The position numbers were made by a program, and so were the translations under genes. Below, piece after piece: positions 4,700 through 61,734 of a DNA stretch of 64,000 nucleotides (position 1 is its first letter; each line of letters starts with the position of its first letter). The DNA is from a virus. The notes below the pieces were generated by a model, which made no database searches, was not told the origin of the DNA, and saw nothing but the letters and a program-made list of their open reading frames with translations. The stretch covers positions 1-64,000 of the IMG/VR virus record IMGVR_UViG_3300029267_000581. The stretch is one strand, 5' to 3'.

Positions 4700-4707
4700 G
4701 AGACCCC

Positions 4708-8252: not shown

Positions 8253-8254
8253 CT

Positions 8255-23285: not shown

Positions 23286-24116
23286 TCAGAGACCGAATAT
23301 GCTCATACACGCCTCGACCGGCTGACCGGTTGTGAGGTGCATATACAGAGCGCCTTCGGCCTTCGTCAGGTTGCCGCCTCGAAGCTGGGAGATGCTCCCA
23401 AACTGACGACAGACAGCCTCGTGTTGCTCGCCATTCCGTGCAAGCTCATCTCTCAGGTTGAACGGAATCAGATCACCTGCCGAGACGGGAGTAGTCCCGG
23501 AAGCCTTCTGAATCGCACCAACCAGAGACCGAGCAAGCCGGTCCATCACGTCGCCGTCGAATGGCGGCGGGTTGAACTGCTCCGCCGGGACCTCTTCGTC
23601 CAGAGCGATCCCCTTGAGCAGCGCCCGAACAGGGGCGTTGTCGTTCTTGGGATTGCCCGTCACGGCGATGTTGAAAACGGTTGCCTTCTTGACCGTACCC
23701 TTCGGAGACCGCGCACCGACCTTACCTTCCAGGGAAAGCCCGAGGGTGCGTTCGACCTTGTCCTCCTCCAGAGACTTTGCGAGCTTCCAGACCGAGGGGG
23801 CCATTGGCCGCGACGGCAAAAGCTCCAGCTCCGTGTAGAGGCACTTCCCGAAGCCTGGACGGTCACGCAACTCCGCGACCAGGGGGACGCCGATGATCCC
23901 ATCGGGGTCTTGCCGGTGGTTCCAGTTGACCCACCCCTTCTTGAGCAAGGGCTTGACATCAAGCCCTTCCTGCAAGACCCGTTCACCATCGTCGTCAAGT
24001 GTTGGGGCAGAAGCCCACCCGTACAAAAGCATTCGCTCCTTGTCCGTGCCTGCGCCAGCCTTCACCAGACCAACGTCGTCGAAGGCGCAGACAATGTCTG
24101 TTCCGTGCTCGTACAA
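23286..24116 (-). CDS. Prohead maturation protease (HK97/S78-like)
   Basis: 276 aa with a TTG start 7 nt after GAGGAGG. The VNWNH and LGLSLEGK motifs resemble the His and Ser regions of HK97-type prohead proteases. Confidence 0.75.
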   Translation of the reverse strand: MYEHGTDIVCAFDDVGLVKAGAGTDKERMLLYGWASAPTLDDDGERVLQEGLDVKPLLKKGWVNWNHRQDPDGIIGVPLVAELRDRPGFGKCLYTELELLPSRPMAPSVWKLAKSLEEDKVERTLGLSLEGKVGARSPKGTVKKATVFNIAVTGNPKNDNAPVRALLKGIALDEEVPAEQFNPPPFDGDVMDRLARSLVGAIQKASGTTPVSAGDLIPFNLRDELARNGEQHEAVCRQFGSISQLRGGNLTKAEGALYMHLTTGQPVEACMSIFGL

Positions 24117-24118
24117 AC

Positions 24119-27100
24119 TTAGTCCTCCTCATCATCCGTGCGTGGCTTACCTACCGGGGGAAGGGTCAGATTTACCTGCACCGGAGGTGATAGTACCGCC
24201 TTCGTAACAACTGCCCTTCTGGCTTCTGAACTGACTGTACCAGGCTTGGTCTCTGCGGACCTGGACGGGGGTGGAGCTTCCACCTTGGGCAACATACGCT
24301 CGACCTGTATAACGCGCCTCGTCCTGTCTCTGCCACGAGTTTCGACAATGACTGGACGGGTAGACGTAGCAGTCTCCCTCGGCTTCTTCTGGTCCTTGCG
24401 TGGGTGCATAGTACCGCCACGCTCGACGGGCCTATCACCAGTAGCAAGAGACTGAGGGCGTACCACGTCACCTTGCTTGTAGCTCAAAGGCGGCGAAACA
24501 AAGATGGTTCTGTGCTCCATCCTGTCACCTGATCGCTGTTGGATCGCCTCCTGCCCACCAGGGGACTTCATGGCGGCATCCCACAGCTCCAGGAGGTTTG
24601 TAGCCACCCGTGTACGCAGTAGCGGATCGTGTTGTACTGTCTCGTGCGGAGGGGGGCGCTCACCGGGAGGTGTTTGTATGCCCGAAATCTCCTGTGACCG
24701 AGCCTTGGCCTTCTTGCCAGCGGCGCGAACGATCTCACCACCACGCTCGGCTGCCTCGGCTAGCTCCAGAACCTTCGCTGTCGCCTCTCGACGAAGACGT
24801 CTGCTTGTCTGATGACGGGGGTTATACACACCTCTTTGCTGAGACGGCTCGATCTCGCCCTCTTCGTTTACACCAGCCATCGGGAAATCCTGCCCACCCT
24901 CGGTCAGTCGGCGGAAGGCGACCTTGCGTTCGTTACTCCGTGACCAGGCTTCCCTCTCCGGTGTACCAGCGGCAGGAATCTGGGGGGTCTCCCCAGTGTG
25001 CCCCTCGAATCCAGGCGGAATATACCAGTTGGCGGGGTTTGCAGCCTCACCTAGAGCGAACTGCTTTCCGGTAGGAACCCAGCCTTTGCGTAGATTCACG
25101 ATCTCTGTGACAGAAGGAAGAGCGTTGGGGTGCCCAGGTGTGAGAAACCCGTTCATCTTCACGAGCTTGCGAAGCTGGGAAGCGCGTTCGTGCCACTTCT
25201 CGAAATCTTCCTTCTCCACAATGGAGTACAAAGGCTGCCAGGGGTACTGGCGCTCCTCAGAAGAGCCCGAGTGCAACATCTTGTGGTTGTAGACCTCGGG
25301 CTCATTCCAGCTTGCGTGGGCTCCTGGAAGCCTGTACCGCCTACGCATAGTAGGACCAGACTCGACCTTCGGCGGCACAAATGTTGGGTCGGCTGAAGCC
25401 AAACGAGCAAACCGCCTACGCCTCTCGACGTCGGCAGGAAGCTCCTGTCCAGGCTTGGGTCGACTGCGAGCGGCGAACCTTGAACCCTGACCACGGCTTT
25501 CTGCGATCTCTCGCATGACGCGCTTACGAGCGGCTATTGCCGATCTTTGTCGGATCAGCGCGTCACGCTCGGCGTCGGCTAGATGCAAAGGCCCCAAAGG
25601 ACCCATATCCATCGTTTTGCCGTGTTCCTTCAGCTCCTCCGTTGTGACGCCACCGTGCTTCCTCTGGTTGTACTCAGGGGAACGGAGCTTCTCGCGCATC
25701 GCCATGTGATAGGCGACAGGAGCGATAGCACCACGGAAGTCAGCCACGTTACGAGGTTGCTCTTCTGTACTCAGCTTCTCCAGGACATCCCTGCGTATGT
25801 TACCGCGAGAGTCCATCGGAACGCCGGGGTAGTTCTGCATCCCGATTGTGGCTTGCCACAAAGGGGCTACAGTTGGAGGCTTGAGCTTCGGCTTTGCCTT
25901 GTCAGTCCGCATCATCTTGCGAATCTGTTTGTTGGCTCTGTCGATCTGCTCCCGCTCGTACTGTATCTGTTGCCAACGATCCTCGACGTCGCTTTTGTCG
26001 AATCCCTTTCCTTGCTTGTTCCAGGACCGACGAAGCTCGTTCTTGGACTTCGGGTGCGCCGCCAGAGTAGCCTCGTTCCGCGAAAGCTGCTTCACGAGAC
26101 CGTCAATGACAGTGCTATCCACCTCGTAGTTCTGATGCTCCAGTGGAAGACCTGGAAACAGCATGAGGTCTAGCATGGCTAGATCGTCAGCATCGAGCTT
26201 GTGGTGGTCTTCCTTCTCCACACCCCAAGCACGACGACGCTCCAGCGCGTTGATGAGTTCCTGCCGCACCTTCGCTGACATCTCCAACGTGGCTATGTGC
26301 GAAGGGTGTACGACGTGGTCAACTGGTATACGAGCAACGATCTCGTCGTTCGGGTCACCCGTCCAGACAGGGTCGCTGCGCCGCCCACGCTCATCGTATG
26401 TATACCGCCAGCCGCGCATTACGCGCTCCTGGTCCATAGGACCCCTGGCACCGACAGTCTGACCGATGGGAGAACCTTGAGATAGCAGGTTGGTCGTGAG
26501 AGCCGCGTCGGCGTACATATCTGCCGGGAGCCCCATTTCGGCCTTACTGCCCCCATCCTCATCCATACCCTCCGGCTTTGATGCCCCAGTCTGGACTGGA
26601 ATGGACCTCTCAACCATGCCCTCAAGGAACTTTTCCCAAGGCTCCTTGTTACCTTTCTTCGCAGCCTCCAGAGCCTTCTGGCCTTTCGGTTGCTCGGCGA
26701 GGTATTTATCAATATCGTACTTCTTGCCCTGCGCCGCTGTCTTGATGGAATCCCATGAAGGCTTTGCCCTGAAAATTCCAGCCATCCTCTCAGCCTGTTT
26801 CGCAGACTCGACGATGTCTGTCCAGATGCGCCACCGCTTCCAGGAACCCCCACGACGCTCGCGCAACGAGATGTTGGCTTGTCGCCACTCCCCGAGGCGT
26901 TCGCCTGCAAGCTGTAGGGCTTCGATCTCTATCCGATCATGCACCTCTCTGGCTATGTGACCAAAGATCGCCATTGCCGAATGTGGATCTAACCCCTTAC
27001 GGACGTGTTGCTCGTTTTCAGGGTCATACGTGATGAGTGCCTCGATGGCGGCTTCAAGACCAGCCGATATGGCACGCTCGGCGTCCTTCTTGGGCACCGT

Positions 27101-28342
27101 AGTCTGACCCCTACGCTGAAAGGCATTGGCGTAGATGTGATCCATCACACCACGTTGCCAGTAGCTCTTGGCCCACTCACCCTCGGGCACCTCGCCCTCT
27201 ATCGGGACAGAGCGGAGAATGCGATTGCCGTCAGCGTCGATGACAGCGTGACGTGCCCCCATGATCTCAGCCATGAGAGTGTCCCACTGGTCTGCTGTGA
27301 TGTTGTTGTCCCTACCGAAAGCAGCCTTGTTGATACTCGGTCGGCCAGAACTGTACGTGACAGGCAGCTTGAGTTCACCCTTGGCTACAGCCTCCAATGT
27401 GCCGAAATACTGATTCGACACAGAGTTTGGCTCTTGCTGCGGGATCTCCTCGACGAACGGATGTGCCTTATCTGGTATGATCGCTTTCAGATCAGCCGAC
27501 ACCCTTGCCCGCATGTGGTTGTTTACGTGCCACTCCAACATCTTCTGCAACTCTCTCTTCTCAGAGAGGGACAGATCGCGAGCAGCGTTGTAAAGCTCGG
27601 GGCGCGGTGTAGCTCCGACCTTGCGGAACTCCATCTCGCCCTTCTCATTCTTGCCGACAGGGATGGTAGCCAACGGCTCTCTCGACTCATGCGGCTTCTT
27701 GAAGATGTTGTCGTGCAACATCCTACGAACAAGACGCTGTAGGTGCTTCGCCCTCTCATCGTCGGGCATCTGCCCCCAGCCGTCCTTGTACTTTATGATC
27801 TCGGCAGCGTCGTTGGCTACCTCCTCGGCTAGCTGGCTTGCCCTCTCAGACACACCAGTACCAAGGTGCGAGATCTCGTCCTCTTTCTTGAGACGCGCCT
27901 CGACGTACTTCTTGCGCTCCCTGTCCTTTATACGCTTCAGCCTGGCTGCGTCCTCTTTCTCGATACCGTACTCGGCACGTAGAACAGAGTCCAGGTTCTT
28001 AGCGTCAAAGGCCGCAGCCGCCATGTCGGCGACCCCGAGGTTGGCAAGGAGGAGAGCCGCGTTGATGCGTTCGAGTGTGGCATGGCCTTCCTTGTGCCAT
28101 GCGTCCCAATCGTCCTCGTCGATGTAGACGATTGCCGGATACGGTCTATCGTGTTCCTGGAGGCGTGGTGCGTCCTTCACCTCCTCGTGTTCCTCGCGTT
28201 GCTTGACCGTCTTCATGTAGCCCTGGTGGTAGATGCCGGTTGGACCGACACCTGGACGCACCCAGACGCGCTTCGCGACCAGCCCTTTTTGGAGAGCAAG
28301 GCTGGTCAACGCCTGGCTATTTCGCGCACCGAGCTTTAGCAC
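24119..28342 (-). CDS. Very large (about 1400 aa) Lys/Arg/Glu-rich protein of unknown function in the head module (internal/ejected virion protein candidate)
   Basis: 1465-aa ORF. The first 58 codons overlap the S66 gene, so a GTG at 28342 (or the ATG at 28216) is the likelier start. I recognise no catalytic motif. Confidence 0.65.
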   Translation of the reverse strand: MLKLGARNSQALTSLALQKGLVAKRVWVRPGVGPTGIYHQGYMKTVKQREEHEEVKDAPRLQEHDRPYPAIVYIDEDDWDAWHKEGHATLERINAALLLANLGVADMAAAAFDAKNLDSVLRAEYGIEKEDAARLKRIKDRERKKYVEARLKKEDEISHLGTGVSERASQLAEEVANDAAEIIKYKDGWGQMPDDERAKHLQRLVRRMLHDNIFKKPHESREPLATIPVGKNEKGEMEFRKVGATPRPELYNAARDLSLSEKRELQKMLEWHVNNHMRARVSADLKAIIPDKAHPFVEEIPQQEPNSVSNQYFGTLEAVAKGELKLPVTYSSGRPSINKAAFGRDNNITADQWDTLMAEIMGARHAVIDADGNRILRSVPIEGEVPEGEWAKSYWQRGVMDHIYANAFQRRGQTTVPKKDAERAISAGLEAAIEALITYDPENEQHVRKGLDPHSAMAIFGHIAREVHDRIEIEALQLAGERLGEWRQANISLRERRGGSWKRWRIWTDIVESAKQAERMAGIFRAKPSWDSIKTAAQGKKYDIDKYLAEQPKGQKALEAAKKGNKEPWEKFLEGMVERSIPVQTGASKPEGMDEDGGSKAEMGLPADMYADAALTTNLLSQGSPIGQTVGARGPMDQERVMRGWRYTYDERGRRSDPVWTGDPNDEIVARIPVDHVVHPSHIATLEMSAKVRQELINALERRRAWGVEKEDHHKLDADDLAMLDLMLFPGLPLEHQNYEVDSTVIDGLVKQLSRNEATLAAHPKSKNELRRSWNKQGKGFDKSDVEDRWQQIQYEREQIDRANKQIRKMMRTDKAKPKLKPPTVAPLWQATIGMQNYPGVPMDSRGNIRRDVLEKLSTEEQPRNVADFRGAIAPVAYHMAMREKLRSPEYNQRKHGGVTTEELKEHGKTMDMGPLGPLHLADAERDALIRQRSAIAARKRVMREIAESRGQGSRFAARSRPKPGQELPADVERRRRFARLASADPTFVPPKVESGPTMRRRYRLPGAHASWNEPEVYNHKMLHSGSSEERQYPWQPLYSIVEKEDFEKWHERASQLRKLVKMNGFLTPGHPNALPSVTEIVNLRKGWVPTGKQFALGEAANPANWYIPPGFEGHTGETPQIPAAGTPEREAWSRSNERKVAFRRLTEGGQDFPMAGVNEEGEIEPSQQRGVYNPRHQTSRRLRREATAKVLELAEAAERGGEIVRAAGKKAKARSQEISGIQTPPGERPPPHETVQHDPLLRTRVATNLLELWDAAMKSPGGQEAIQQRSGDRMEHRTIFVSPPLSYKQGDVVRPQSLATGDRPVERGGTMHPRKDQKKPRETATSTRPVIVETRGRDRTRRVIQVERMLPKVEAPPPSRSAETKPGTVSSEARRAVVTKAVLSPPVQVNLTLPPVGKPRTDDEED

Positions 28343-28352
28343 ACGAATCGGT

Positions 28353-29369
28353 CTAACCGGTGTGCCCAAATGCGTTACCCTCCCGCTCGTCCAAAACCAA
28401 GCAATCTTCCTTGAAAGTGATCTTGGCGCGAGCCCCTGATGCCAACACCAACCCTGAGTAGTCCGGGGCATGGTGACCGAAAGCGACGTTGCAGAACGCC
28501 GGAATTTGTACTCCAAGCCAGCGCAGGGCGTCTCGAACGAGACCCGCTGTGCTCGGGGGGTCGAAGTCGTATCCTATGCGAGTCATGGTGAGCCTGTCGG
28601 CTATGCCCGGAACAGGGCCAAAGCCGATAGCACCACCACCCTCTGCCACAGCTTCTATGAAAGGAGCCATGTGCGTCAAATCCTCATAGAAGCCGATCCA
28701 ATTCAGATCACCTGCTGGATAGGCGTCCTCGACGAGTAGGAAGCAACGCTGGCTCTTCAGATACCGTAGCGTCAGTTGCCGCACAGGACCGGTTATCTGA
28801 TTGAGTGTCCGTAGGCACATCGGAATGACGGTGTAGGGTTCGCTAGATGGGCGCACGGAGGACACGTTCTGAACGTCCACGAACGCATCCATGCGCTTCT
28901 CGGGGTGTTCAACCCACTCCCGCACACGCTGTAGTCCTTCGATGAGAGCTTCTTGCGATCCCATGAAGTTGACGCCGTAGAAACCCATTGCGAGGGATGA
29001 GATCGTTGCCCACAGGACATACACCGAGGAATCGCTTGCCCCGATGACTATGTTCTCCGTCACACGCTCCTGCGTGATGAGTCCGTTGCACATATGGTGT
29101 GCGATACGCGCCGCGCCTGAACCACCATCAGCGCAGATGATCATTCTCCGATCATCCGAGTCCAGCAACTCCAGGAATTCGTCGGCCAGGTCAGCCGCGT
29201 TCTCTGCATTATCACCACCGTCGGTGACGATAGGAGATGAGTGCGGCTTGATACCGTAGCGTCGGACCTTGCTGCCGAGAGCTGATTTGAACCACGACAC
29301 CCGTTGCTGAAGAGCTATGGGCGACGTTAGACCAGAACCGTGCCAGAGTATGACACCATATTCAGCCAT
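28353..29369 (-). CDS. Peptidase S66 family (LD-carboxypeptidase / MccF-like Ser-His-Glu hydrolase)
   Basis: Compared with E. coli LdcA, the following motifs align. ADGGSGAARI matches RGGYGASRLL. IGASDSSV matches GHSDFTAI (nucleophile Ser). LLVEDAYP matches LVLEDINE (Glu). VAFGHHAP matches LDFGHEQ (His). The start ATG 29369 overlaps the upstream stop by 8 nt. Confidence 0.8.
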   Translation of the reverse strand: MAEYGVILWHGSGLTSPIALQQRVSWFKSALGSKVRRYGIKPHSSPIVTDGGDNAENAADLADEFLELLDSDDRRMIICADGGSGAARIAHHMCNGLITQERVTENIVIGASDSSVYVLWATISSLAMGFYGVNFMGSQEALIEGLQRVREWVEHPEKRMDAFVDVQNVSSVRPSSEPYTVIPMCLRTLNQITGPVRQLTLRYLKSQRCFLLVEDAYPAGDLNWIGFYEDLTHMAPFIEAVAEGGGAIGFGPVPGIADRLTMTRIGYDFDPPSTAGLVRDALRWLGVQIPAFCNVAFGHHAPDYSGLVLASGARAKITFKEDCLVLDEREGNAFGHTG

Positions 29370-30048
29370 CGAGTGCCGCCTCTCTGGCGCGACACTCGTA
29401 ACACACACCGCAAGCTGGGTATATGTCACAGCTATGGGTCATGCTCATATCGACATCGTGGTGACGCCCGAGGGCAACCACGTCTTCCTTGGTAAGCTCG
29501 TTCAGAGGTGCAAGAAACATAGGAGCGCCACGCCCCCATATGGCCTGCCTCTCCGCGTTGAGGTAGTCGGTGAAGTACGCGCAGCAGTCGAGAAGCGTGT
29601 CTGATCTGCTTACGATCACTTCACCGTCTGGATTGTGCTGTTGGAACCCGGTAAGGACTCTTGAGCACCCACGCCGTACCGCCAAAGCCCCAAGCACGAT
29701 CCAGATGATCGTGTAGAGCCCTGGTGCGTAGTCGTCCCAGAGGGTGTCCTGTTTCTGCGCCAAGCCTTCGTCCCCAAGGGAGTCGACAGCACGCTTCTTC
29801 CGGTCACCCTTTTTGTCGAAGATCCGGCACCCCTCGGTAACTACAGAAGGTAGCTGCATCGGGATGACAGTCCAACGAACACCGAGACGCTCCGCATGAA
29901 ACTTCATGGCCTCGATTGCTACTTTCGAGGTCTTTGTCCCCAGGTCGACATGGGCAAGCTCTACTGAGTCAGCCCCCTCGGAATCCACCGTATCGTATGC
30001 AAGGACGGTCGAGTCCAGACCGCCACTGTACGCAATGATAGATTTCAT
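29362..30048 (-). CDS. Divergent QueC-family PP-loop ATPase (QueC-like 1)
   Basis: N-terminal MKSIIAYSGGLDSTVLAY PP-loop and a C-terminal Cys cluster SCDIYPACGVCYECR as in QueC. The P-x-RN and PDC motifs seen in the other two copies are replaced by APGLY and LDCC. Confidence 0.7.
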   Translation of the reverse strand: MKSIIAYSGGLDSTVLAYDTVDSEGADSVELAHVDLGTKTSKVAIEAMKFHAERLGVRWTVIPMQLPSVVTEGCRIFDKKGDRKKRAVDSLGDEGLAQKQDTLWDDYAPGLYTIIWIVLGALAVRRGCSRVLTGFQQHNPDGEVIVSRSDTLLDCCAYFTDYLNAERQAIWGRGAPMFLAPLNELTKEDVVALGRHHDVDMSMTHSCDIYPACGVCYECRAREAALDG

Positions 30049-31310
30049 CAGTCCCCTGCCTTCTTCGCACGTTTCGTCGCAGCCTTGGCTCTCGCGGCCT
30101 CGGCCTCGGCTGCCCTTCGGAGCTGTTCACGCCGCGCTTTCGCTTGCTCCATACGAGCCTCAACTTTATGAACGCCGCGTTCTGCTGCGGCTTGGACCGG
30201 CTGGACGGTTCGTTGCATGGCCCCCTGTTGGGCCACGCCAGCGTTCATCACGCCACTTGCCATCATAGCGCCGGATTGAGATGCTTGTTCAAGACCGTGT
30301 AACATCAGAGCCGCCCCACGCATGGAGGTTGTGGCGATACCGCCTATCCTGACGATTGCGCCCTTACCGCGAACGATGGGGATACTCTTGCCTCCGATCT
30401 TGATCGAACTCCGATCACCCGGTTGCTTCAAGCCTGTGACGGCTTCCTTGAGATCGCTGCCTATCTGGTTGAGCTTCTCTTTCACACCGGGTTCTGCCTT
30501 GGCGATGTACTCGTCAATGACCTTCTGATCGGCTGCGGCCTCTTCCTCCGCCAGCTCCTTCTTCTTTTGCTCAGACTGTTCCGGTAGATCCGGGGCGTCG
30601 AGCATAGAAGGCTTCTTGTCCTTGCCCCCAGCTTTATGTTCCATCTTGAACGTGCCAGGGGCTCCGGGCTTCGCGGCGGCGGCCAACTGCTTCGCTGTCT
30701 TCTTGTACTTCTCTTGCTCCTCGGGTGACATACCCTTTGGCATCTTCACCCCAGGATCGTCCTGCCGGTCTTTCTTCTTCTGGTGACGCTGAAAGACCTT
30801 GCCTCCACGATGAACCTCAACAAGCTCCTCGTGCAAAGCCGATGGGCCAGACGGAGCTTTCGCCGCAGCCGCCTGTTCGGCCTTCTTCTTTGCGATGTAC
30901 TCGGAGACATCGCGGCGAGCCTTGTTGAGCGTAAAGATGCGTACTGTTTCCATCTCACCTTGCCCTTTCGGCCAATCCGGCCAGTCTTTCGGGTAGAGCT
31001 GCGAAACCTTACCCGTCCTGCTCAAGCCGGATGGTGTCCAGGTACACAGGCAGTTGGGATGAGGTAGAACGTGTTTCCACCGCAAGATGGTCTTGATGAG
31101 GTGCTTCCTGTTGTTCAATCGTTCACAGATCGGACAGCAGGCGGGGTTGGCGTCGAAATAAGCATGCTTATACCCCTTGTCGTACCCGGCTTGGAGACGC
31201 GCCCGCACCTCTGGATCACGGTCCCGGACCACAGAAGGATGGTCCGTGCCCCGATTCCCGACGCCTGGACGCCACCCTACAGGCAGCTTCCTTTGTCTTT
31301 TCTTCGGCAT
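30048..31310 (-). CDS. MuF/SPP1 gp7-like minor head protein remnant fused to a long Lys/Ala/Glu-rich tail
   Basis: PACCPICERLNNRK...HVLPHPNCLCTW matches the CxxC...HPNC.C knuckle at the end of the MuF domain. It sits at residues 55-95, so most of a canonical MuF domain is absent. Confidence 0.6.
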   Translation of the reverse strand: MPKKRQRKLPVGWRPGVGNRGTDHPSVVRDRDPEVRARLQAGYDKGYKHAYFDANPACCPICERLNNRKHLIKTILRWKHVLPHPNCLCTWTPSGLSRTGKVSQLYPKDWPDWPKGQGEMETVRIFTLNKARRDVSEYIAKKKAEQAAAAKAPSGPSALHEELVEVHRGGKVFQRHQKKKDRQDDPGVKMPKGMSPEEQEKYKKTAKQLAAAAKPGAPGTFKMEHKAGGKDKKPSMLDAPDLPEQSEQKKKELAEEEAAADQKVIDEYIAKAEPGVKEKLNQIGSDLKEAVTGLKQPGDRSSIKIGGKSIPIVRGKGAIVRIGGIATTSMRGAALMLHGLEQASQSGAMMASGVMNAGVAQQGAMQRTVQPVQAAAERGVHKVEARMEQAKARREQLRRAAEAEAARAKAATKRAKKAGD

Positions 31311-31320
31311 TGCACCTCCA

Positions 31321-31370
31321 AGGTATACTAATATGTATCCATAACTGCTACCTCGGAAACTTTTTTAGCC
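31321..31370 (-). promoter_or_regulatory. Copy P2 of the conserved promoter-like element (AAAAAAGTTTCCG-N13-GGATACATA ... GGAGGTGCAATG)
   Basis: Lies in the 100-nt AT-rich gap upstream of the MuF-like gene. It has the same GTTTCCG-N13-GGA(TA)CATA architecture as P1, P3 and P4. Confidence 0.5.
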
Positions 31371-31410
31371 AAAAAAATTCCCCTGTAAGATCAAGCAGTT
31401 ACCGATAATA

Positions 31411-32046
31411 TCAGTCGTCCTTGTGACACCCTTCGCACTCTCCACACGGGGAACCGTCGGAAAGAGGGGTGTAGCACCGTGAGAGGGCGTCGACAGGAAC
31501 CCCGAGGTCTTGTGCGAGAGTCCTGATCTGTGACCGATCAAGGTCGATCAGAGGTGTGAGCAACTCAGGCCCATCGGAGTCATCAGCGAATGCCTTGTTG
31601 TTGGCGGTGTAGATCCGACGCATCTCCCTGGCCCACTCAGGGCGACAGTCAGGGAAGGCAGGAGCGTCGGAGGCGGTGACGCCGATACAGACATCAGCAT
31701 CGACCTGTACGGCGTACTGGTAGGCGAACGAGCAGAGGATGGTGTTTCGCCCAGGAATGTAGCCCTTTGCGAGGTCTGAGTCGAGAGGAGCCACAGGACC
31801 GTCGCACGGAGGGAAGGGCGGGATGGTGACACGCCGGAGACGTTCGTGCCAGTTGGTCATGTTGATCTTCTTGAGCAGATACACGGCGACCGACAGCTCC
31901 TCGCTGGCTGCCTTGTTGTCGCCGAACTGGACGTACATGGGATAGATCTCGATGCCGTCCTTCGCCAGTTGGTAGAGCAGGACAGCGGAGTCGAGTCCCC
32001 CAGAAAGGAGCAGTACGACCTTGGGATGTTCTTTCGGATCGAGCAT
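31411..32046 (-). CDS. queC: 7-cyano-7-deazaguanine synthase family (QueC, copy 2)
   Basis: Carries LLLSGGLDSAVL, YIPGRN, AFPDCRPEW and CY...CGECEGC, the canonical QueC landmarks. Confidence 0.85.
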   Translation of the reverse strand: MLDPKEHPKVVLLLSGGLDSAVLLYQLAKDGIEIYPMYVQFGDNKAASEELSVAVYLLKKINMTNWHERLRRVTIPPFPPCDGPVAPLDSDLAKGYIPGRNTILCSFAYQYAVQVDADVCIGVTASDAPAFPDCRPEWAREMRRIYTANNKAFADDSDGPELLTPLIDLDRSQIRTLAQDLGVPVDALSRCYTPLSDGSPCGECEGCHKDD

Positions 32047-32750
32047 CAGAAACCTCCTCCGAGGGTGAGCCCCGCCGCCTTGCGGATCTTACAGGGTTCA
32101 CACTCTCCACAGGGCTGCTGCTTCCCGTGTACTTCCTTGGGGAAGTAGCAAGCCCAGGTGTTGTACGACGGAACATCAAGCCGCTCTGCCTCCTCCGCGA
32201 TCTGTGGTTTGATCAGGCTCACTAGAGGTGCGTACAGCTTGACAGGAAACTCATCATTGCCCCGAGCCGAGTCCTCCAGGTCGAAGACCTTTTGCATGGC
32301 GTCCACCCACGCCTGCGTGCAGTCAGGAAAGCTGGTCCTGTCCTGCATACGCGCCGACGAGTTGATGCCGATCCCTATCAGATCAGCCTTGATGAGCCTG
32401 GCATGGTAGTACCCAATCGTGGCGAAGACCGAGTTACGCATAGGAACGAGAGCCGGTGAAAAACCGTCGCCGTATTTGGCTGCGGCCCCACCGGTCAGGA
32501 AGTGATCGGGCAGAGAGACACTGGCCTGTTTGAATCCGAGGAACCTATGTTGGCAATCGGACTCGACCCTCCGAATGTGTCGCGCCACCTCGCGAACGCA
32601 GGACAGCTCGCCTTGGAACCCGAGCTGCCCATAGTCGAAGAACAGTGCTCCGACCTCGTAGTCACAAAACTCCTGCTCTTTCAGGAGCTTGTATAGAGTG
32701 GTCGTCGAGTCTATGCCGCCACTCCACAGAACCAAGGCTCTACGCATCAT
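32046..32750 (-). CDS. queC: 7-cyano-7-deazaguanine synthase family (QueC, copy 3)
   Basis: Carries LVLWSGGIDSTT, LVPMRN, SFPDCTQAW and WACY...CGECEPCKIR. It has a 1-nt stop/start overlap with copy 2. Confidence 0.85.
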   Translation of the reverse strand: MMRRALVLWSGGIDSTTTLYKLLKEQEFCDYEVGALFFDYGQLGFQGELSCVREVARHIRRVESDCQHRFLGFKQASVSLPDHFLTGGAAAKYGDGFSPALVPMRNSVFATIGYYHARLIKADLIGIGINSSARMQDRTSFPDCTQAWVDAMQKVFDLEDSARGNDEFPVKLYAPLVSLIKPQIAEEAERLDVPSYNTWACYFPKEVHGKQQPCGECEPCKIRKAAGLTLGGGF

Positions 32751-33007
32751 CTACCCTTCCACGGCGTGTGGGCAACCTGGATCATACCACGCCCACGGGG
32801 GCGCTTCAGCACCAGCTTGAAGTTTGTCAGTTGAAGCGTTGCCAACGGGATACCCGTCACGATTGACACCGCCTCCTCCAGCGGCATGATGGGCTCTGTC
32901 AGCTTCATCTTGCCGTCTACACGACGCGGCTTGCCACCGTGTAGATCGTTGATTTTCGCCTGTTGCTCAGGCGTGACCTCTATCTCGGTCACCATGTTGT
33001 ACGGCAT
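32747..33007 (-). CDS. Hypothetical protein
   Basis: 86-aa ORF with an ATGA overlap onto QueC copy 3. Confidence 0.55.
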   Translation of the reverse strand: MPYNMVTEIEVTPEQQAKINDLHGGKPRRVDGKMKLTEPIMPLEEAVSIVTGIPLATLQLTNFKLVLKRPRGRGMIQVAHTPWKGR

Positions 33008-36288: not shown

Positions 36289-37791
36289 TTAGAACAAGTC
36301 ACCCTCACCAGAGGGCCATTGCGAATCCCAGTCGCCACCGGCTTCGGCAGCGTCAGTGTCGTCTTCCCCGTCCGCACCCTGTTCGCCCATCGCCCCCTGT
36401 TTCTCTTGCATGAAACTGGGGTCACGAATGATGTCCCCATGCTCGATGGGTTCCATACCGTGTGCTTCGCGGACTTCGTTGATCGTCATGTAGACGCTGC
36501 TCTTCTCGCGGTCGAGCGTCATCCGATCTGATTCCGATTGCCGGTCAAAGCCGGTGAACTGAAACTCGAACTCCCCTTGCGGGTCGAGGACGGGCATGAG
36601 TTCTTGGTTCATGCAGTCCTCTATGAAGTCGACCAGAGTGCGTAGTCCCTTGTCACGCGAGGCTGTCAGCCTTGTTGCCTCCGGGGCCGAGTTGATCATG
36701 TTGCCACCACCTCCGATACCACCACTGCGGTTGGGGAAGTTGATCTCAACAGGATCAATACGGTAGAGGGCAGAACAGAGATTGACGATGTAGTCAAGGA
36801 ACGCACCGAACTCGATGTCTGTTGCCTGGGGGAAGTGGATGAAGTCGATCCTGCCACCCCGAGAGATCGGAAGTAGCGGGAGCTTGTGCTTCCCACGGAA
36901 GGTCGCTACCTGCGCCTTGTACCGAGCTTCGAGAGAGCGAAGCTGTTGCTCGTTGATGTCCGCGCCCGTAAGGGTGAGCATCCCTTTCGGCATCGAACCC
37001 GGCTGAAACTGCCTTGAGTTAGTTTCGTCGATGCCGAGGTGGGCTTGGACCATCCTCATTGCGATCTCGGCCTCTGATTCACCGTAGCCATTCTGCTTCA
37101 TGGCGGTAGTGATGTTCTCAGGGCAGAACATGAACTCCTCGTCACGGAACCTCGTGACGACCTTGCCCTGGTAGACCTGTACGTAGTCGTACTCCTGCGA
37201 CTTGGCCGGATCGACCACTCTGACAGTCGCACCGTCGATGGCGTAGAACTGCCTGGGGCTACCGATACGGTCCAACTCAATGAACCCGCACGGCTGATCC
37301 AATTCCAATCGGTCGCGCACGAACTTCTTGAGAAACGAAGCGAAGCCCCTCTCGTGCTTCTCCCTATGGGGTACGTCTTCACGAGAGCAGTTCTGAATGA
37401 ACTTCGTCATCGCCTCTTCACGCTGCTTCGTCGCGTCTTGGCGCTCTCCAGCGCCCTTCTTGAGTCGCACACGAAAGCCGTTGGCTCGACCCGTTGCCAT
37501 CTCAGAGTCTTCGTCCAGGTTCGGCCTGGAGAAAGGCATGAGCTGACCAATCCGCGTGAAGAAGATTGCTGAAAGGATCGAATCCCTGTGACAGAGGTAA
37601 CGCAGCGTCTCATACCCAACCCGACTAGGCTTCTCCCTGTATGCAGCAGAGGAGAGAGCCCAAACGAACGGGTCTGCGACCATTGGCCCACCGGGACCGC
37701 GTACCTCGTCAATCCCCGGCACCTCGACCTCGGCTTTGAAAAGGTCCAAGCCGTGACCGACTGCCGAGGCCAAATCACCAAGTAGTCCCAT
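36289..37791 (-). CDS. Portal protein
   Basis: 500 aa directly after the large terminase, with an acidic C-terminus. Size and order are typical, and the overall sequence looks portal-like to me. Confidence 0.8.
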   Translation of the reverse strand: MGLLGDLASAVGHGLDLFKAEVEVPGIDEVRGPGGPMVADPFVWALSSAAYREKPSRVGYETLRYLCHRDSILSAIFFTRIGQLMPFSRPNLDEDSEMATGRANGFRVRLKKGAGERQDATKQREEAMTKFIQNCSREDVPHREKHERGFASFLKKFVRDRLELDQPCGFIELDRIGSPRQFYAIDGATVRVVDPAKSQEYDYVQVYQGKVVTRFRDEEFMFCPENITTAMKQNGYGESEAEIAMRMVQAHLGIDETNSRQFQPGSMPKGMLTLTGADINEQQLRSLEARYKAQVATFRGKHKLPLLPISRGGRIDFIHFPQATDIEFGAFLDYIVNLCSALYRIDPVEINFPNRSGGIGGGGNMINSAPEATRLTASRDKGLRTLVDFIEDCMNQELMPVLDPQGEFEFQFTGFDRQSESDRMTLDREKSSVYMTINEVREAHGMEPIEHGDIIRDPSFMQEKQGAMGEQGADGEDDTDAAEAGGDWDSQWPSGEGDLF

Positions 37792-51907: not shown

Positions 51908-52690
51908 CTACGCGATGATGGCAGAGGCTACCACGTTGAACGGGTGGATGCTCTCCTGGCTATCGACATGGACAGTCCCCGAGATGATGCCGTCGATGTC
52001 CTTCAGAGCCGTCACGGCGTCCCGCACAACATCTTCGGCGAACTTCGGGTTGGCGAAGGCATCGGCGACGATCTGTTTCTCATCCGGGCGTTTCACGATG
52101 CCGTACACGGGGCTAGAGCCCGAGGTTCGTAGAGCAGCGATGACGTCCTCGATCCATACGTGGTTTCCTTGCGCGATCTGGACCTCGGCTGTGACCTCAC
52201 ACCTCTGCACATGAGCGGCTCTGTTGTCGTTGAGAGCCAGACTGCACGGACAGACGGACATGACCGGTACTGTGACGTGCATGTACTGGAAGACCATCGT
52301 GCCCGTGAGAGCCGCCTGAAGGACGGACCTATAGTACGCAGGGAACAGGTTGTCTGTGATCGGAGAACGATCATCAGGCACCCTGTAGTCGAACGAGTAC
52401 GCCGCCACGACGTGCTGACTCCCAAGGGCTTTCGCCACGTCGAGAACGAGCTGCTTCAGGATACCCTCCCCGGCCTTGTGCGGGCGTGTTTCCACAGCCC
52501 TAGCGATGCGGCTCAGATGTGTACCTTTCGAGTCCTCGTCAAGACGCACAGTGACGGTGAGGCTGGCGTCGTAAGGGACGTGCTCACCGTCCCTGTTCTT
52601 GAGAAGAAGCGGTGCCTTGACCCCGCTGAAACCGACCATGACAGGTATGCCCCTGTCGTCTCCTTGTGAGTGAATATCTGGCAAGCTCAT
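51908..52690 (-). CDS. folE2: GTP cyclohydrolase I type 2 (FolE2/MptA family)
   Basis: GTHLSRI matches THMSRF. VCPCS is the CPCS motif. AAHVQR matches AHNQR. QESIHPFNVVA matches ESIHNH.A. The start was chosen at MSLPDIH. Confidence 0.8.
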   Translation of the reverse strand: MSLPDIHSQGDDRGIPVMVGFSGVKAPLLLKNRDGEHVPYDASLTVTVRLDEDSKGTHLSRIARAVETRPHKAGEGILKQLVLDVAKALGSQHVVAAYSFDYRVPDDRSPITDNLFPAYYRSVLQAALTGTMVFQYMHVTVPVMSVCPCSLALNDNRAAHVQRCEVTAEVQIAQGNHVWIEDVIAALRTSGSSPVYGIVKRPDEKQIVADAFANPKFAEDVVRDAVTALKDIDGIISGTVHVDSQESIHPFNVVASAIIA

Positions 52691-57930: not shown

Positions 57931-57946
57931 GATCTGACTCCGATCA
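57931..57946. repeat. Exact copy 2 of the dispersed 16-bp element GATCTGACTCCGATCA. On the minus strand it reads TGA-TCGGAGTCAGATC-ATG and links the two fibre genes
   Basis: Identical to 14100-14115. Confidence 0.9.
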
Positions 57947-59693: not shown

Positions 59694-59710
59694 TGATCGG
59701 CGTCAGATCA
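59694..59710. repeat. Inverted-orientation copy of the dispersed element (TGATCGGCGTCAGATCA). The QueE stop codon lies in its arm
   Basis: Direct reading. It has 1 mismatch to the exact 16-mer when reverse-complemented. Confidence 0.7.
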
Positions 59711-60379
59711 TGGCATGTTCACGAACTTGTGCCACTGAATAGACAACCGGGGCATGAAGCCGAGAGCCATCTGAATGTGTTGTGAGCATCTGAGAGCCAT
59801 CGGGAGGCTCGACTTGATGCCGTCATCCCGCCACTCTGGCTGGATGCAGATTGTCTTCGTCATGACTCTTTTCAGCACCGCGCTCTTCGCGTCAGCGTTG
59901 GGCAGTATACTGAGAATGGAGTCCACAACAGCATCGTTACCAGGCCAACAGCCCGGCACGACGTATTTCAACTCGTCGATGTCGCCGCATCCAAGAACGA
60001 CGTCGGAGTCATGTTTCGGTGAGCACACAACGTGAGCGATACCTTTGAAGTGCCCAAGTACACCCCTGACAGCCCCGTTGGTCTCCAGCATGAACATACC
60101 AAACGTCTCGTTGCGCCACGCGGCTAGAACCTTCGCAAGTTCGATGTCCATGTGTAACAGAGGCTCCCCGCCAGTCAGCATGACAGCGGGGTACTTTCGC
60201 GGGAGGCGTTCTGCGAACTCGTCAGCGTCGAGAATGTACCTCGGGCGTGCAAGGTGTTCGTCACAGAATGGGCACGCGAGGTTACACCCAGCGAAGCGCA
60301 ACAGGCGTACAGGCCAACCTGACATGGCCCCCTCTGCCTGGTACGTGTCCACGATTTCCGATAGCTTGTATTTGCCCAC
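59708..60379 (-). CDS. queE: 7-carboxy-7-deazaguanine synthase (radical SAM QueE)
   Basis: EIVDTYQAEG, FAGCNLACPFCD and LTGGEPLL. The GTG start at 60379 lies 5 nt after GGAGG. Confidence 0.85.
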   Translation of the reverse strand: MGKYKLSEIVDTYQAEGAMSGWPVRLLRFAGCNLACPFCDEHLARPRYILDADEFAERLPRKYPAVMLTGGEPLLHMDIELAKVLAAWRNETFGMFMLETNGAVRGVLGHFKGIAHVVCSPKHDSDVVLGCGDIDELKYVVPGCWPGNDAVVDSILSILPNADAKSAVLKRVMTKTICIQPEWRDDGIKSSLPMALRCSQHIQMALGFMPRLSIQWHKFVNMP

Positions 60380-60882: not shown

Positions 60883-61734
60883 TTACTTGTCTTTGCCGAA
60901 GTATTGCTTTATCAGCTTTACGACAGCGCCCGCACGGGTTTCCTCGGCCATGGCTTCACACAGGTCTTCGAGCATGTCTTCGATTTCGTCTGTCCCCGGA
61001 AGGGACAACATGATGGGCATACCCCGAGATGACTCTTTGAGCTGCGTAGAACCACCACCTTCGGCCTCAGCACCAAATCCTCCGATGGAGCTGAAGTCGA
61101 TGTTGCTGAACATATCTTCGTCCGTACCTTCGTCGGAACCTGACCCTGCACCTCCTCCCAACGAGCCCATAGGGGCGAGCGGCTTCAAAGTGCCAGCCTC
61201 GTCAGCACCCACGACGCCGAGTAGCTCTTCCAAAGCATCCTTGTCGCGTGCAGTAGCCGTCGCGATCTCGTTGATCGGAATCTGATCGTCTCGCATCTCG
61301 CGAAGGACCTCGAAAAAGCCCTTCTCGTCCAATTCAGCACTTACGTTGAAACTGAACATAGCAAGGTCGGCGTCAGCCGGAGACACAGATTGACCTTGCT
61401 TGTCAGTGAGAACAACGACCGGAACGGTATCGTATCCACGAGTGCTCAGTTCGTCGATACGGTGGTGCCCGTCGATAAGCTCCCACTCACCAGACGTCTT
61501 GCCTGGAATGACAATGACTGGATCACGAGGTCCGAGCCTGCCGATGGAGTCTTTGAGAGCCTGGAGCTGCAAGTCATCCATCTTACGAAAGCGTGTCTTC
61601 CGCTGCTTGATTGACTTGATGTAGACCTCACCGATCTGCAAGCCGGTCTCAAGCTCGACAAACTCATTCACAGCGAGTTTGCGAGCAGCCTTACTCGTGG
61701 TCTTCTTTTTCTTCTTTTTGCCCGCCTTCTTCAT
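60883..61734 (-). CDS. ParB/Srx-fold N-terminal domain protein (DGHHR motif) with an acidic Gly-rich C-terminal half
   Basis: PVIVIPGKTSGEWELIDGHHRIDEL follows the ParB-like nuclease-domain pattern. It has an ATGA overlap with the DpdA-like gene. Confidence 0.7.
   Translation of the reverse strand: MKKAGKKKKKKTTSKAARKLAVNEFVELETGLQIGEVYIKSIKQRKTRFRKMDDLQLQALKDSIGRLGPRDPVIVIPGKTSGEWELIDGHHRIDELSTRGYDTVPVVVLTDKQGQSVSPADADLAMFSFNVSAELDEKGFFEVLREMRDDQIPINEIATATARDKDALEELLGVVGADEAGTLKPLAPMGSLGGGAGSGSDEGTDEDMFSNIDFSSIGGFGAEAEGGGSTQLKESSRGMPIMLSLPGTDEIEDMLEDLCEAMAEETRAGAVVKLIKQYFGKDK

Follow-up and report, generated by a model that had tools for sequence, protein, structure and literature searches.

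Three QueC-family paralogues and an S66-family hydrolase form a conserved gene set in the head operon of uncultured phages, with a possible role in DNA modification

The QueC family comprises ATP-pyrophosphatases whose adenylation target is the carboxyl or amide group of 7-carboxy-7-deazaguanine (CDG). The canonical enzymes (PF06508 cluster 1, TIGR00364; structures 3BL5 and 2PG3) combine an SGGxDS ATP loop and a Cys4 zinc site with a YxQxHxxE lid and with Arg-Asn, YPDC and Cys-Tyr motifs. Other members of the family ligate CDG to the N-terminus of an adjacently encoded protein (10.1101/2025.04.06.647259; PMC13279940). Among these ligases, Cap9 of type IV CBASS (9NTO), a protein of ~185 aa, is encoded with a CD-NTase and the TGT-like Cap10, and an Arg and an aromatic residue stack on the deazaguanine in its active site (10.1101/2025.04.06.647259). 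Described phage systems include the Gat-QueC or split QueC plus Ntn amidohydrolase of phage 9g and Vibrio schizoT4-like phages, in which the hydrolase is a possible nitrogen supply, the QueC* of Campylobacter phages, for which ADG synthesis has so far only been proposed (PMC10516641), and the QueC of HVTV-1, a virus reported to carry dPreQ1 (PMC10516641). An earlier note on the DNA described here stated that known phage 7-deazaguanine clusters carry one QueC or one Gat-QueC; phages with several QueC-family genes do exist. Three IMG/VR contigs have a canonical QueC and a paralogue like our QueC-C (below), and QueC-family ORFs number three in one IMG/VR contig and two in Vibrio phage 1.081.O. 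Our literature search found no report of a three-QueC set, in line with the note's view that the set is unusual.

We analyzed positions 1–64,000 of IMG/VR record IMGVR_UViG_3300029267_000581, from an uncultured phage (hereafter, the window). Three ORFs, QueC-A (234 aa, 32046..32750), QueC-B (211 aa, 31411..32046) and QueC-C (228 aa, 29362..30048), were present where they had been reported, all on the minus strand and with all of the quoted motifs. Their placement between portal and prohead protease genes was borne out by matches of 36289..37791 (minus) to Pfam Phage_portal (58.2 bits) and of 23286..24116 (minus) to phrog_1028 (E 3.5e-31), which bound the context on either side; the major capsid protein lies at 20767-22224 (phrog_752). 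Profile searches, proposed earlier as a way to separate QueC from other PP-loop families, placed all three ORFs in the QueC family. Pfam QueC (PF06508) scores were 125.5, 119.4 and 61.9 bits for A, B and C, respectively, with a gathering score of 22 (E-values 2.7e-36, 2e-34 and 8.1e-17, far beyond chance), E-values to PHROG 1550 “QueC-like” were 1e-39, 2e-36 and 7e-21, and the matches in Pfam and PHROG, like those to PDB entries by sequence and by fold, favored QueC or Cap9 over TtuA, LarE and GMP synthase. Scores for the NCBIfam QueC equivalog (TIGR00364) were 103.5, 96.7 and 44.5, all below the cut-off of 150.3, although this is a weak test because the phage's own QueD, QueE and FolE2 also score below their cut-offs.

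When A, B and C sequences were aligned with references (18 sequences in all), SGGxDS, the Asp of PDC and all four zinc Cys were invariant. The three paralogues also share the fold of canonical QueC. The loss of substrate residues was graded across the paralogues, with essentially none lost from A, the lid lost from B and nearly all lost from C. The description of the ORFs as two canonical and one divergent therefore holds for A, which is near-canonical, and for C, but not for B, and “two canonical” is too strong in any case as no paralogue reaches the equivalog cut-off. A and B are 27% identical, C matches them solely at the P-loop, and the NJ support for A and B as sisters was only 57%; judged from their sequences, the three are ancient paralogues.

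QueC-A has SGGIDS, a YGQLGFQGE lid, VPMRN, FPDC and CGECEPC, the last within a CY...C-x12-CxxCxxC zinc motif. It retains Tyr-Gly-Gln, Arg-Asn, Phe-Pro-Asp-Cys and Cys-Tyr, and all residues shown to be essential in E. coli QueC are present. It differs from canonical QueC in a lid that lacks His and is one residue longer, and in its C-x12-C spacing. The long, His-less lid is shared with its closest phage relative, HVTV-1 QueC (31%). FPDC in place of YPDC and the longer lid are also found in QueC*, which, unlike A, has Ser for the lid Gln, keeps the His and occurs as one gene per genome. PDB matches to A were 2pg3 and 3bl5 (QueC) and 9nto (Cap9), and the PADLOC Cap9-type “QueC” model matched it at 74 bits.

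QueC-B (33–36% identical to bacterial QueC) has SGGLDS, IPGRN, FPDC and CGECEGC, with a CY...C-x9-CxxCxxC zinc motif, but in its lid, FGD, both Tyr and Gln of YxQxHxxE are missing; the mutation Y35A inactivates E. coli QueC (PMC13329287). That the B lid is not conserved among orthologues (MRQ, MGH or YGQ) and that most substrate residues are gone from C would fit A alone being catalytic, as an ordinary preQ0 synthase, with B and C non-catalytic or regulatory (for example, by serving as scaffolds within a QueC dimer or by channelling to DpdA) and the DNA bearing only dPreQ0. QueC and Cap9 are dimers (10.1101/2025.04.06.647259) and a tandem QueC-QueC fusion exists, both of which suit such an arrangement. 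We nevertheless consider it rather unlikely, as no B or C orthologue departs from the SGGxDS P-loop or from the four zinc Cys, which is unexpected for a mere scaffold, and C has strictly conserved motifs of its own (DYAPGxYT, RxxIWG and THSC). In addition, purifying selection is of similar strength on A, B and C (pN 0.16–0.26 against a saturated pS of ~0.7 for genes of the block), and all three are maintained by selection.

QueC-C (SGGLDS, APGLY, LDCC, C-x5-CGVCYEC) keeps the ATP loop, one Asp of PDC and a short C-x5-CxxCxxC zinc motif, and has lost the YxQ lid, RN (PGLY instead), the aromatic-Pro of YPDC and Cys-Tyr; it also carries two insertions. The best PDB sequence match of its profile was Cap9 (9nto, 38.7 bits), with which it shares the short zinc-knuckle spacing, and the top folds for its AF2 model (pLDDT 77) were 3bl5 QueC and 9nto Cap9, about equally good. 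The Arg and aromatic residue (Tyr) that hold the base in Cap9 are missing from QueC-C, which may therefore not bind any deazaguanine.

With only a generic ATP loop, one Asp and a zinc knuckle kept, C (with or without the S66 hydrolase described below) might act on a non-deazaguanine substrate, e.g., a peptide or cell-wall carboxylate, and have no part in DNA modification. The usual substrates of S66 enzymes are peptidoglycan peptides or peptidyl-nucleotides, which would suit this reading. So would an earlier suspicion (PMC6884629) that certain singletons among the phage “QueC-like” proteins are members of other subfamilies of N-type ATP-pyrophosphatases. However, C still has its best matches, in sequence as in fold, in QueC and Cap9 rather than in LarE, TtuA or NAD synthase, and members of its subfamily are found together with QueC proper, and fused to it, in deazaguanine contexts, making such a role improbable. 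C groups with a “TYSCEFYPxC” phage QueC-like subfamily (87% NJ bootstrap; L025-L027, representatives P0136-P0150), whose C-x5-CxxCxxC spacing and overall length it shares. The gene order in the IMG/VR contigs L025-L027, near packaging genes, is canonical QueC, SAM methyltransferase, DUF5591 (ArcS core) and QueC-like, and these neighbors tie QueC-C by association to deazaguanine tailoring. The subfamily differs from C in its invariant Y-G-Q and R-N and in its DUF5591 and methyltransferase partners, neither of which was found in the window, where C has the S66 gene and other neighbors instead. In the protein P0174, an A-like and a C-like QueC domain occur naturally fused in tandem, which supports physical cooperation of the two types. 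Among isolated phages, the best matches of C were Vibrio phage QueCs that adjoin an Ntn hydrolase.

The order of genes in the block, namely 86-aa protein, A, B, unknown protein, C, S66 hydrolase and 1416-aa protein, is conserved, being complete in three lineages (the window, L001 and L003) and partial in the short contigs L110 and L111, with identities of 36–77% across these five metagenomic phage lineages. The block genes are translationally coupled and have Shine-Dalgarno sites. The range given in the earlier note began at 28353 but left out the ORF at 28353..29369 (minus), which encodes a 338-aa S66-family serine hydrolase (LD-carboxypeptidase/MccF-like). It matched the Pfam Peptidase_S66 N-domain (36.4 bits, gathering score 25) and the MccF-like structure 4e94 (E 2e-6, spanning the Ser and His regions), and its G-A-S-D-S nucleophile, VEDAYP..GDLNWIGFYEDLT and FGH motifs are invariant in three lineages. 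The gene was found in L001, L003 and L111. As a predicted Ser-His-Glu hydrolase it is the sole candidate enzyme to deliver or trim an amine, in a pairing of QueC and hydrolase like that of the Gat-QueC and Ntn systems, although class-II GATase and Ntn are lacking here. We know of no S66 enzyme linked to deazaguanine chemistry. The S66 gene adjoins the 1416-aa gene in every case and in L003 is parted from C by a 271-aa gene, so its link to QueC may be only positional.

The 420-aa protein (30048..31310, minus), which has a Cys/His motif at its N-terminus, is rich in Lys and Glu in its middle and is conserved in its C-terminal part, had been called a MuF remnant. It had no match in Pfam or PHROG, even at E<=10, or in NCBIfam or PADLOC, and its CCPIC...HPNCLC motif is presumably the sole likeness to MuF; homologues of its C-terminal ~270 aa are a 271-aa protein in L003 and a 231-aa protein in L111. 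The 1416-aa protein (24119..28369, minus), defined by gene calls and conservation and lying directly after S66 and before the protease, gave no match in family searches and probably resides inside the head or is ejected.

The location of the QueC genes among probable internal head proteins, and not replication genes, is one reason to consider that one or more paralogues, with C and B the best candidates, act in the manner of Cap9 or QatC and join CDG to an amine on one of the phage's proteins, for which N-terminal ligation by QueC-family enzymes is a precedent (10.1101/2025.04.06.647259; PMC13279940). Candidate targets would be the adjacent 1416-aa, 420-aa and 86-aa proteins or N-termini made by the prohead protease, with the S66 hydrolase processing or reversing the tag, and a virion or ejected protein would end up carrying a nucleobase. 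Like cap9, the phage genes adjoin uncharacterised proteins that are possible substrates, A has the Cap9-type lid (Y-x-Q-x5-E; Y/F-x-Q-x5-E in Cap9), and the sequence and fold of C fit Cap9 as noted above. The predicted N-terminus of the 1416-aa protein, M-G-T-P-V-R-P (TTG start, GGGAGGG Shine-Dalgarno), also resembles the essential MGTS N-terminus of QatB (PMC13279940), but its L003 orthologue starts M-V-A, without the N-terminal Gly. C lacks the base-holding residues of Cap9, the phage paralogues are longer (211–234 aa), and CD-NTase, Cap10-type and QatA/B/D partners were not found. The PADLOC QatC match was negligible (14.9 bits), the NCBIfam QatC score was 20.9 versus 280, and the ArcS-core and methyltransferase genes beside C-like relatives elsewhere represent a nucleic-acid tailoring context. 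Overall, we regard protein modification as unlikely.

Other deazaguanine genes in the window, which had been described as one group at 52-63 kb, are scattered and do not form a single cluster. All are on the minus strand: FolE2, the GTP cyclohydrolase of the first step towards CDG (51908..52690; Pfam GCHY-1 193 bits, NF010200 170.9), a QueE-like radical-SAM CDG synthase (59708..60379; phrog_2076, TIGR04508 57.7 bits, CxxxCxxC), a candidate DpdA-like (TGT-family) DNA transglycosylase (61731..62741; phrog_887 “queuine tRNA-ribosyltransferase”, E 1e-11, and a weak tblastn match to phage R5C TGT) and the CPH4 synthase QueD (62771..63124; TIGR03367 84.9 bits, with a PTPS match on the identical L009 gene). 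The QueD is not a DpdL decarboxylase variant, as its CxxxHGH motif rules this out. Beside the DpdA-like gene, a ParB_N-domain protein (60883..61734, minus; Pfam ParB_N 25.5 bits, phrog_3264) is DpdB-like by position only. The reported absence of QueF and glutamine amidotransferase from the window was supported, as no match to queries for phage QueF, class-II Gat, Ntn or ArcS/DUF5591 was obtained by tblastn in the window or genomic flanks, and there was no fourth QueC among the ORFs examined. The QueC set lies 20–30 kb away from these genes, inside the head block, a position that fits a protein-directed role equally well.

The reading we prefer, tentatively and at somewhat less than an even chance, is that A supplies preQ0 or ADG for DpdA, and that B, C and the S66 hydrolase add a further step beyond preQ0. 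FolE2, QueD and QueE would give the phage its own CDG, which A would most likely convert to preQ0 (or the amide ADG) and hand to DpdA. We infer a division of labor in which B and C would cooperate with A, perhaps within hetero-oligomers, and carry out at least one additional ATP-dependent condensation on the 7-substituent, using a non-ammonia nucleophile or acting on a bulkier substrate, while the attached group would be provided or trimmed by the S66 hydrolase. On this reading, virion DNA should contain a 7-deazaguanine beyond preQ0. A small group of uncultured phages keeps the fixed QueC set together with an S66 hydrolase in the late operon. Because only A resembles a normal QueC, the phage may make an unfamiliar variant of this DNA (or protein) modification; the host may also supply QueC, in which case the preQ0 synthase need not be A, B or C. 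The mechanism offered in the earlier note, in which the paralogues differ in where the reaction stops or in the amine used, is compatible with the data, and sequence motifs do not separate preQ0, ADG, G+ and NDG outcomes.

Host QatABCD and type IV CBASS rely on CDG and QueC-like ligases (PMC13279940, PMC13329287), and the QueC-like enzymes and S66 hydrolase might instead counter such defences, whether by depleting CDG, as decoys for host substrate proteins or through hydrolysis of the deazaguanine-protein amide. The match of A to the PADLOC Cap9-type model would be in keeping with this, as would the chemistry of S66 enzymes such as MccF and LdcA, which cut amide bonds adjacent to a carboxyl. 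However, CDG made by the phage (FolE2, QueD, QueE) would feed, not starve, these defences, and similarity to known anti-CBASS proteins was absent. Placement in a late operon is also a poor fit because anti-defence factors are usually needed early in infection, and we hold this possibility to be very improbable.

The 86-aa protein (32747..33007, minus) is encoded immediately upstream of QueC-A in every case, its stop codon overlapping the QueC-A start (ATGA). Pfam, PHROG and PDB searches with this protein gave no match, and it is 87% identical in L001, 42–44% in L003 and ~53% over the core in L110. Judged by eye only, its central segment, EEAVSIVTGIPLATLQ, is helix-turn-helix-like.

The three ORFs at 32046-32750 (A), 31411-32046 (B) and 29362-30048 (C) are QueC-family genes, as the earlier note had proposed, and the motifs it quoted for them are present. 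Each protein scored well above the gathering threshold of 22 bits for Pfam PF06508 (A 125.5, B 119.4 and C 61.9 bits), with matches spanning profile positions 1-205 of 210, i.e., the whole domain, and each also matched the PHROG "QueC-like" family. The SGGxDS PP-loop and the C-terminal Cys4 zinc motif are invariant in all orthologues of A, B and C. A and B were compared to known structures by sequence, and matched the QueC crystal structures 2PG3 and 3BL5, plus Cap9 (9NTO). C alone had no match in the PDB with phmmer; a profile of five C-type sequences matched Cap9 best (38.7 bits), followed by LarE, via the P-loop, and then QueC. C was also compared by model, and the top Foldseek matches of its AF2 model (pLDDT 77) were 3bl5 (TM-target 0.73) and 9nto (0.77), with TtuA and LarE behind. 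The ORFs are thus not members of unrelated PP-loop families. All three fell short of the cut-off of 150.3 bits for the NCBIfam QueC equivalog TIGR00364 (A 103.5, B 96.7 and C 44.5 bits). This says little for phage proteins, because QueD (84.9 versus 89.25), QueE (57.7 versus 240) and FolE2 (170.9 versus 215) of the same phage are also below their NCBIfam cut-offs.

The reported location of A, B and C between the portal and prohead protease genes was also confirmed; genes throughout this part of the window run on the minus strand. In order of transcription, the genes for the terminase large subunit (GpA_ATPase, 37822-39669) and portal (Phage_portal, 36289-37791) are followed by those for 637-aa and 309-aa proteins without a family match, a 55-aa ORF, an 86-aa ORF (32747-33007), A, B, a 420-aa protein (30048-31310), C, an S66-type hydrolase (hereafter S66, 28353-29369), a 1416-aa protein (24119-28369), the prohead protease (phrog_1028, 23286-24116), a probable scaffold protein and the major capsid protein (phrog_752, 20767-22224). 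Starts and stops abut or overlap along the run from the 86-aa ORF to B and along that from the 420-aa gene to the protease, and there is a Shine-Dalgarno-like sequence at each start in these two runs. The block is one tightly packed late operon, in a phage with a bacterial-type translation signal. The 420-aa protein had been described as a MuF remnant, a label that the searches did not confirm: neither the whole protein nor its N-terminal 150 aa had a Phage_Mu_F (MuF/SPP1 gp7) match in Pfam or PHROG at E<=10. Pfam at E<=10 gave nothing useful for this protein, nor did it for the 86-aa, 309-aa and 637-aa proteins. The 86-aa protein, searched as a profile against the PDB, likewise had no match.

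Several proteins of the head block share a short basic motif. Two copies (K-K-V-I-T-N-K-A-G-K-R-Q-T-V-x-V-R) are found in the 309-aa protein (33405-34334), a version reading V-E-V-H-R-G-G-K-V-F-Q-R-H-Q is present in the 420-aa protein and its homologue in contig L003 (3183-3998), and the 1416-aa protein has a related stretch close to its N-terminus. The residues (D/E)-Q-A-D-A-L often stand just before the motif, which might serve internal head proteins as a signal for capsid targeting or for processing by the protease. The region of the 309-aa and 55-aa ORFs (33159-34334) is variable among otherwise identical phages, as a single 590-aa gene replaces both in a near-identical contig from another sample (L006, 5114-6886). 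Just upstream of the terminase gene is a Pyr_excise gene (40039-40503, minus strand) for a T4 endonuclease V-like pyrimidine-dimer glycosylase, an assignment taken from a precomputed Pfam call on an identical contig (L005, L001).

The window is part of ~87 kb phage contigs from several samples, and orthologous loci were found by exact-sequence look-ups. In one lineage (L001/L002) the proteins have 62-77% identity and gene order is identical. A second (L003/L004) has 40-46% identity and the order 104-aa protein, A, B, C, 271-aa protein, S66, 1385-aa protein and protease. Two short contigs carry an 87-aa ORF followed by A and B (L110), and the end of A followed by B, a 231-aa ORF, C and S66 (L111). 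The contigs derive from JGI samples 3300017991 and 3300018080 and from ENA ERZ27256770-96. S66 is beside the 1416-aa gene in every lineage; its adjacency to C is seen in the window, L001 and L111 and is broken in L003. Comparison of the window with L001 gave a non-synonymous divergence of 0.16-0.26 per site and a synonymous divergence saturated at about 0.7, which indicates that A, B, C and S66 are under purifying selection; dN/dS is not given as precise numbers owing to that saturation. The module is otherwise rare. The region had no blastn match among GenBank phages, no close relatives of C and S66 were found in IMG/VR, and the JGI metagenomes held one, on a contig identical to L002. The C and S66 queries gave P-loop matches alone in GTDB genomes, so that there is neither a prophage nor a clue to the host.

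To judge how canonical the three proteins are, we used the signature of a 2026 study of PF06508, namely SGGxDS, YxQxHxxE, VPxRN, YPDC and C-x8-CxxCxxC (PMC13329287). In E. coli QueC, Y35 of the lid, R99 of VPxRN and the Tyr after the first zinc Cys (Y189) are essential, and Y131 of YPDC must be aromatic, with Phe partly active (PMC13329287). The canonical YxQxHxxE lid is complete in none of A, B and C. The lid of A (YGQLGFQGE) keeps the Tyr, Gln and Glu, is without the His and is one residue longer, and A has VPMRN, FPDC and the C-Y pair. B has IPGRN, FPDC and C-Y, and its lid reads FGDNKAASE; the orthologues have M-R-Q, M-G-H or Y-G-Q where the window has F-G-D, and this lid appears, from its sequence, to be no longer constrained. 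C has lost the lid (LGTKTSKVA) and has APGLY, LLDC with the Asp alone kept, and CD in place of C-Y, together with a shortened zinc knuckle (C-x5-C) and two insertions. The spacing of the first two zinc Cys is x12 in A, x9 in B and x5 in C, versus x8 in E. coli. The description of the set as two canonical copies and one divergent copy is therefore only partly right: VPxRN, the aromatic PDC motif and the Tyr after the first Cys are present in A and B and absent from C, but the YxQ lid of B is lost and the lid of A lacks the His.

The contacts that hold the deazaguanine in the structure of Cap9 come from the RN Arg and from two residues of YxDC, the Tyr and the Asp (10.1101/2025.04.06.647259). 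Judged by these contacts, A and B are predicted to be still able to bind the base, and deazaguanine binding by C is doubtful; that C acts on a substrate other than a deazaguanine is rather improbable in our estimate. The alignment shows no change in the ATP loop, the PDC Asp or any of the four zinc Cys across the A, B and C sequences, and we think it unlikely that the set comprises one active enzyme with non-catalytic partners. The lid was rejected as a predictor of whether A or B yields a nitrile, an amide or an amidine. A long or altered lid is shared by enzymes of differing known or proposed products, namely the QueC of halovirus HVTV-1 (nitrile), whose long lid lacks the His as in A, QueC* of Campylobacter phage CP21 (proposed amide), the Gat-QueC of phage 9g (amidine) and Cap9 (protein amide), and hence the motif cannot predict the product. 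The DNA of HVTV-1 carries dPreQ1 (PMC10516641).

A and B are only 27% identical, and C matches them at the P-loop alone in BLASTP. In a neighbour-joining tree with 100 bootstraps, the A orthologues and the B orthologues each formed a clade at 98%, with A and B grouped as sisters at 57% and the two grouped with Cap9 at 28%. C joined at 87% a wider subfamily of ~230-245 aa proteins with the same C-x5-C spacing in the knuckle (T-Y-S-C-E-F-Y-P-x-C), in which Y-G-Q and R-N are retained. Both this subfamily and the true C-type proteins came from a profile search run exhaustively over 1.84 billion representatives, the latter amounting to only seven clusters at E<1e-30.

Genes for the deazaguanine pathway are found elsewhere in the same genome: FolE2 (51908-52690), a QueE-like protein (59708-60379), a DpdA-like TGT-family protein (61731-62741) and QueD with the catalytic CxxxHGH motif (62771-63124). 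The queD and queE genes are 27-31 kb from A, B and C, a distance beyond the linkage expected for a canonical QueC. Tail-fibre-like genes and a gene for a GT4 glycosyltransferase lie among the pathway genes; since the glycosyltransferase gene and the tail-fibre-like ORFs separate FolE2 from QueE, the pathway is scattered among structural genes. The glycosyltransferase (53504-54805) has "GT4-conflict" among its Pfam matches; the tail-fibre-like or beta-helix-like ORFs number five and occupy 54796-59674. A ParB_N-domain protein (60883-61734) overlaps the end of the DpdA-like gene, recalling the DpdA/DpdB pair of bacterial dpd systems; to our knowledge, such a neighbour is unusual for phage DpdA loci. 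A tblastn search of the window and adjoining genome, which covered all but about 7 kb of the 87-kb contig, detected no QueF, class-II glutamine amidotransferase (9g Gat domain query), Vibrio Ntn hydrolase or ArcS/DUF5591, in agreement with the earlier claim that the window has no QueF or glutamine amidotransferase. No further QueC-family gene was found among the ORFs scanned. Based on this gene content, the phage can make 7-carboxy-7-deazaguanine (CDG), and the next step must come from A, B, C or the host. We tentatively favor, at somewhat below an even chance, that A is the CDG-activating synthase for DpdA and that B, C and S66 provide added tailoring. A would activate CDG and yield either the nitrile preQ0 or the amide ADG to feed DpdA. 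B and C would both be active ATP-pyrophosphatases whose specificity for acceptor or substrate has changed and which, together with S66, perform an extra step leading to a deazaguanine derivative other than plain dPreQ0.

The S66 product has a Peptidase_S66 N-terminal domain (Pfam 36.4 bits versus 25), and a three-sequence S66 profile aligned to the MccF-like structure 4e94 across the regions of the nucleophile Ser and the His. Three elements, G-A-S-D-S, an acidic block and F-G-H, do not vary among three lineages, so that the Ser-His-Glu triad looks intact. The assignment is sequence-based, the single-sequence AF2 model (pLDDT 41) being too poor to confirm the fold. S66 enzymes hydrolyse amide bonds adjoining a free carboxylate, and their N-domain has a class-I glutamine-amidotransferase-like fold; S66 is thus the module's one candidate, in a putative role, for nitrogen supply or for trimming of an attached amino acid. 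A bolder proposal, which we consider fairly unlikely, is that three QueC-type ligases and the S66 amidase build an N-substituted 7-amido-7-deazaguanine ("NDG-type"), in DNA or on phage proteins. In DNA, this would be a new base bearing an amino acid or peptide; on proteins, it would be a deazaguanine tag on the phage's own internal head or ejected proteins, and the DpdA-like transglycosylase could even put the tagged base into DNA. QueC-family enzymes have recently been shown to attach deazaguanine to proteins in bacterial immunity, and we know of such nucleobase-protein conjugation from bacterial Qat and type IV CBASS defense alone, so that the NDG-type proposal, if true, would be its first viral use.

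Comparison with those systems revealed several differences. Cap9 of type IV CBASS has a ~185 aa minimal fold and is encoded with a CD-NTase and the TGT-like Cap10; A, B and C are 211-234 aa, and neither partner was detected among their neighbors. QatC of QatABCD is ~400 aa with N- and C-terminal extensions and C-x19-CGxCxxRR, whereas A, B and C are without extensions. The NCBIfam QatC model NF041925 gave 20.9 versus 280, with the match confined to the zinc knuckle of A, and the PADLOC QatC model gave 14.9 bits. Gat-QueC of the archaeosine synthase type has a fused N-terminal class-II glutamine amidotransferase, unlike the single-domain A, B and C. We regard an anti-Qat or anti-CBASS role as very improbable. 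That one or more of A, B and C deazaguanylate neighboring head proteins in the manner of Cap9 or QatC would fit where the genes lie, the likeness of C to Cap9 and the fact that the 1416-aa protein begins M-G-T; however, the Gly is not conserved, C-like relatives occur in a nucleic-acid context, and we rate this role as distinctly unlikely. The 1416-aa protein has a TTG start at 28369 with a strong Shine-Dalgarno sequence and begins M-G-T-P-V-R-P, which is similar to the N-terminal M-G-T-S that is essential in QatB, a protein on which QueC-like QatC acts as its substrate. Its orthologues begin M-G-A-T in L001 and M-V-A-V in L003. The N-terminal Gly was considered as a QatB-like acceptor and, as it is not conserved in L003, is kept as no more than a weak hint.

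Our literature search found no description of a three-QueC set or of a QueC-S66 association, and the most recent QueC-family survey does not cover these phage subgroups. The phage 7-deazaguanine pathways known to us have one QueC or Gat-QueC. Eight 7-deazaguanine DNA derivatives are known. The set is not categorically new, being a QueC-family expansion within a recognizable deazaguanine system, with similar multi-copy cases elsewhere. Even so, it is conserved and clearly delimited, and can be tested for possible new chemistry. As three diverged QueC-type genes and S66 are conserved in a phage with its own CDG synthesis and DpdA, the set is a tangible candidate, open to cloning, for a new derivative, for a QueC reaction that is split or channelled, or for protein deazaguanylation by a virus.

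The best hint at function comes from relatives in other genomes. Three IMG/VR contigs (L025-L027) carry, in order, a canonical QueC, a SAM methyltransferase, DUF5591 (the ArcS core) and a C-like QueC, directly upstream of terminase and portal; we know of no published description of this four-gene block. The block is conserved in all three (in L026 at 3925-6903), with Methyltransf_11 and a QueC-like protein containing TYSCEFFPACG. A 434-aa database protein (P0174) is a tandem fusion of A-like and C-like QueC domains, which argues that the two types may work together physically. These cases draw attention to an uncharacterized phage QueC-like subfamily whose genes accompany those for canonical QueC, the ArcS core and a methyltransferase, and which is also known from a tandem fusion with a QueC domain. 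Two QueC-family genes are also found in Vibrio phage 1.081.O (MG592456.1; L019 4013-4588 and L020 6001-7316). With L035, an unrelated uncultured phage (IMG/VR UViG_3300013099_000024), these examples indicate that QueC-family pairs or sets are a recurrent, as yet uncharacterized trait of phage deazaguanine loci. L035 has one canonical-like and two divergent QueC-family ORFs (3011-3541, 6480-7178 and 7965-8609), which lie in a replication module alongside genes for thymidylate synthase, AAA_24 and a family-B DNA polymerase. In 1.081.O, an isolated Schizotequatrovirus, one QueC is followed by an Ntn "nucleophile aminohydrolase", i.e., a split Gat-QueC arrangement, and the second QueC-like gene (191 aa) is at a distant locus beside proteins of unknown function. 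In a further database protein, P0165 (631 aa), the QueC domain is interrupted by an intein.
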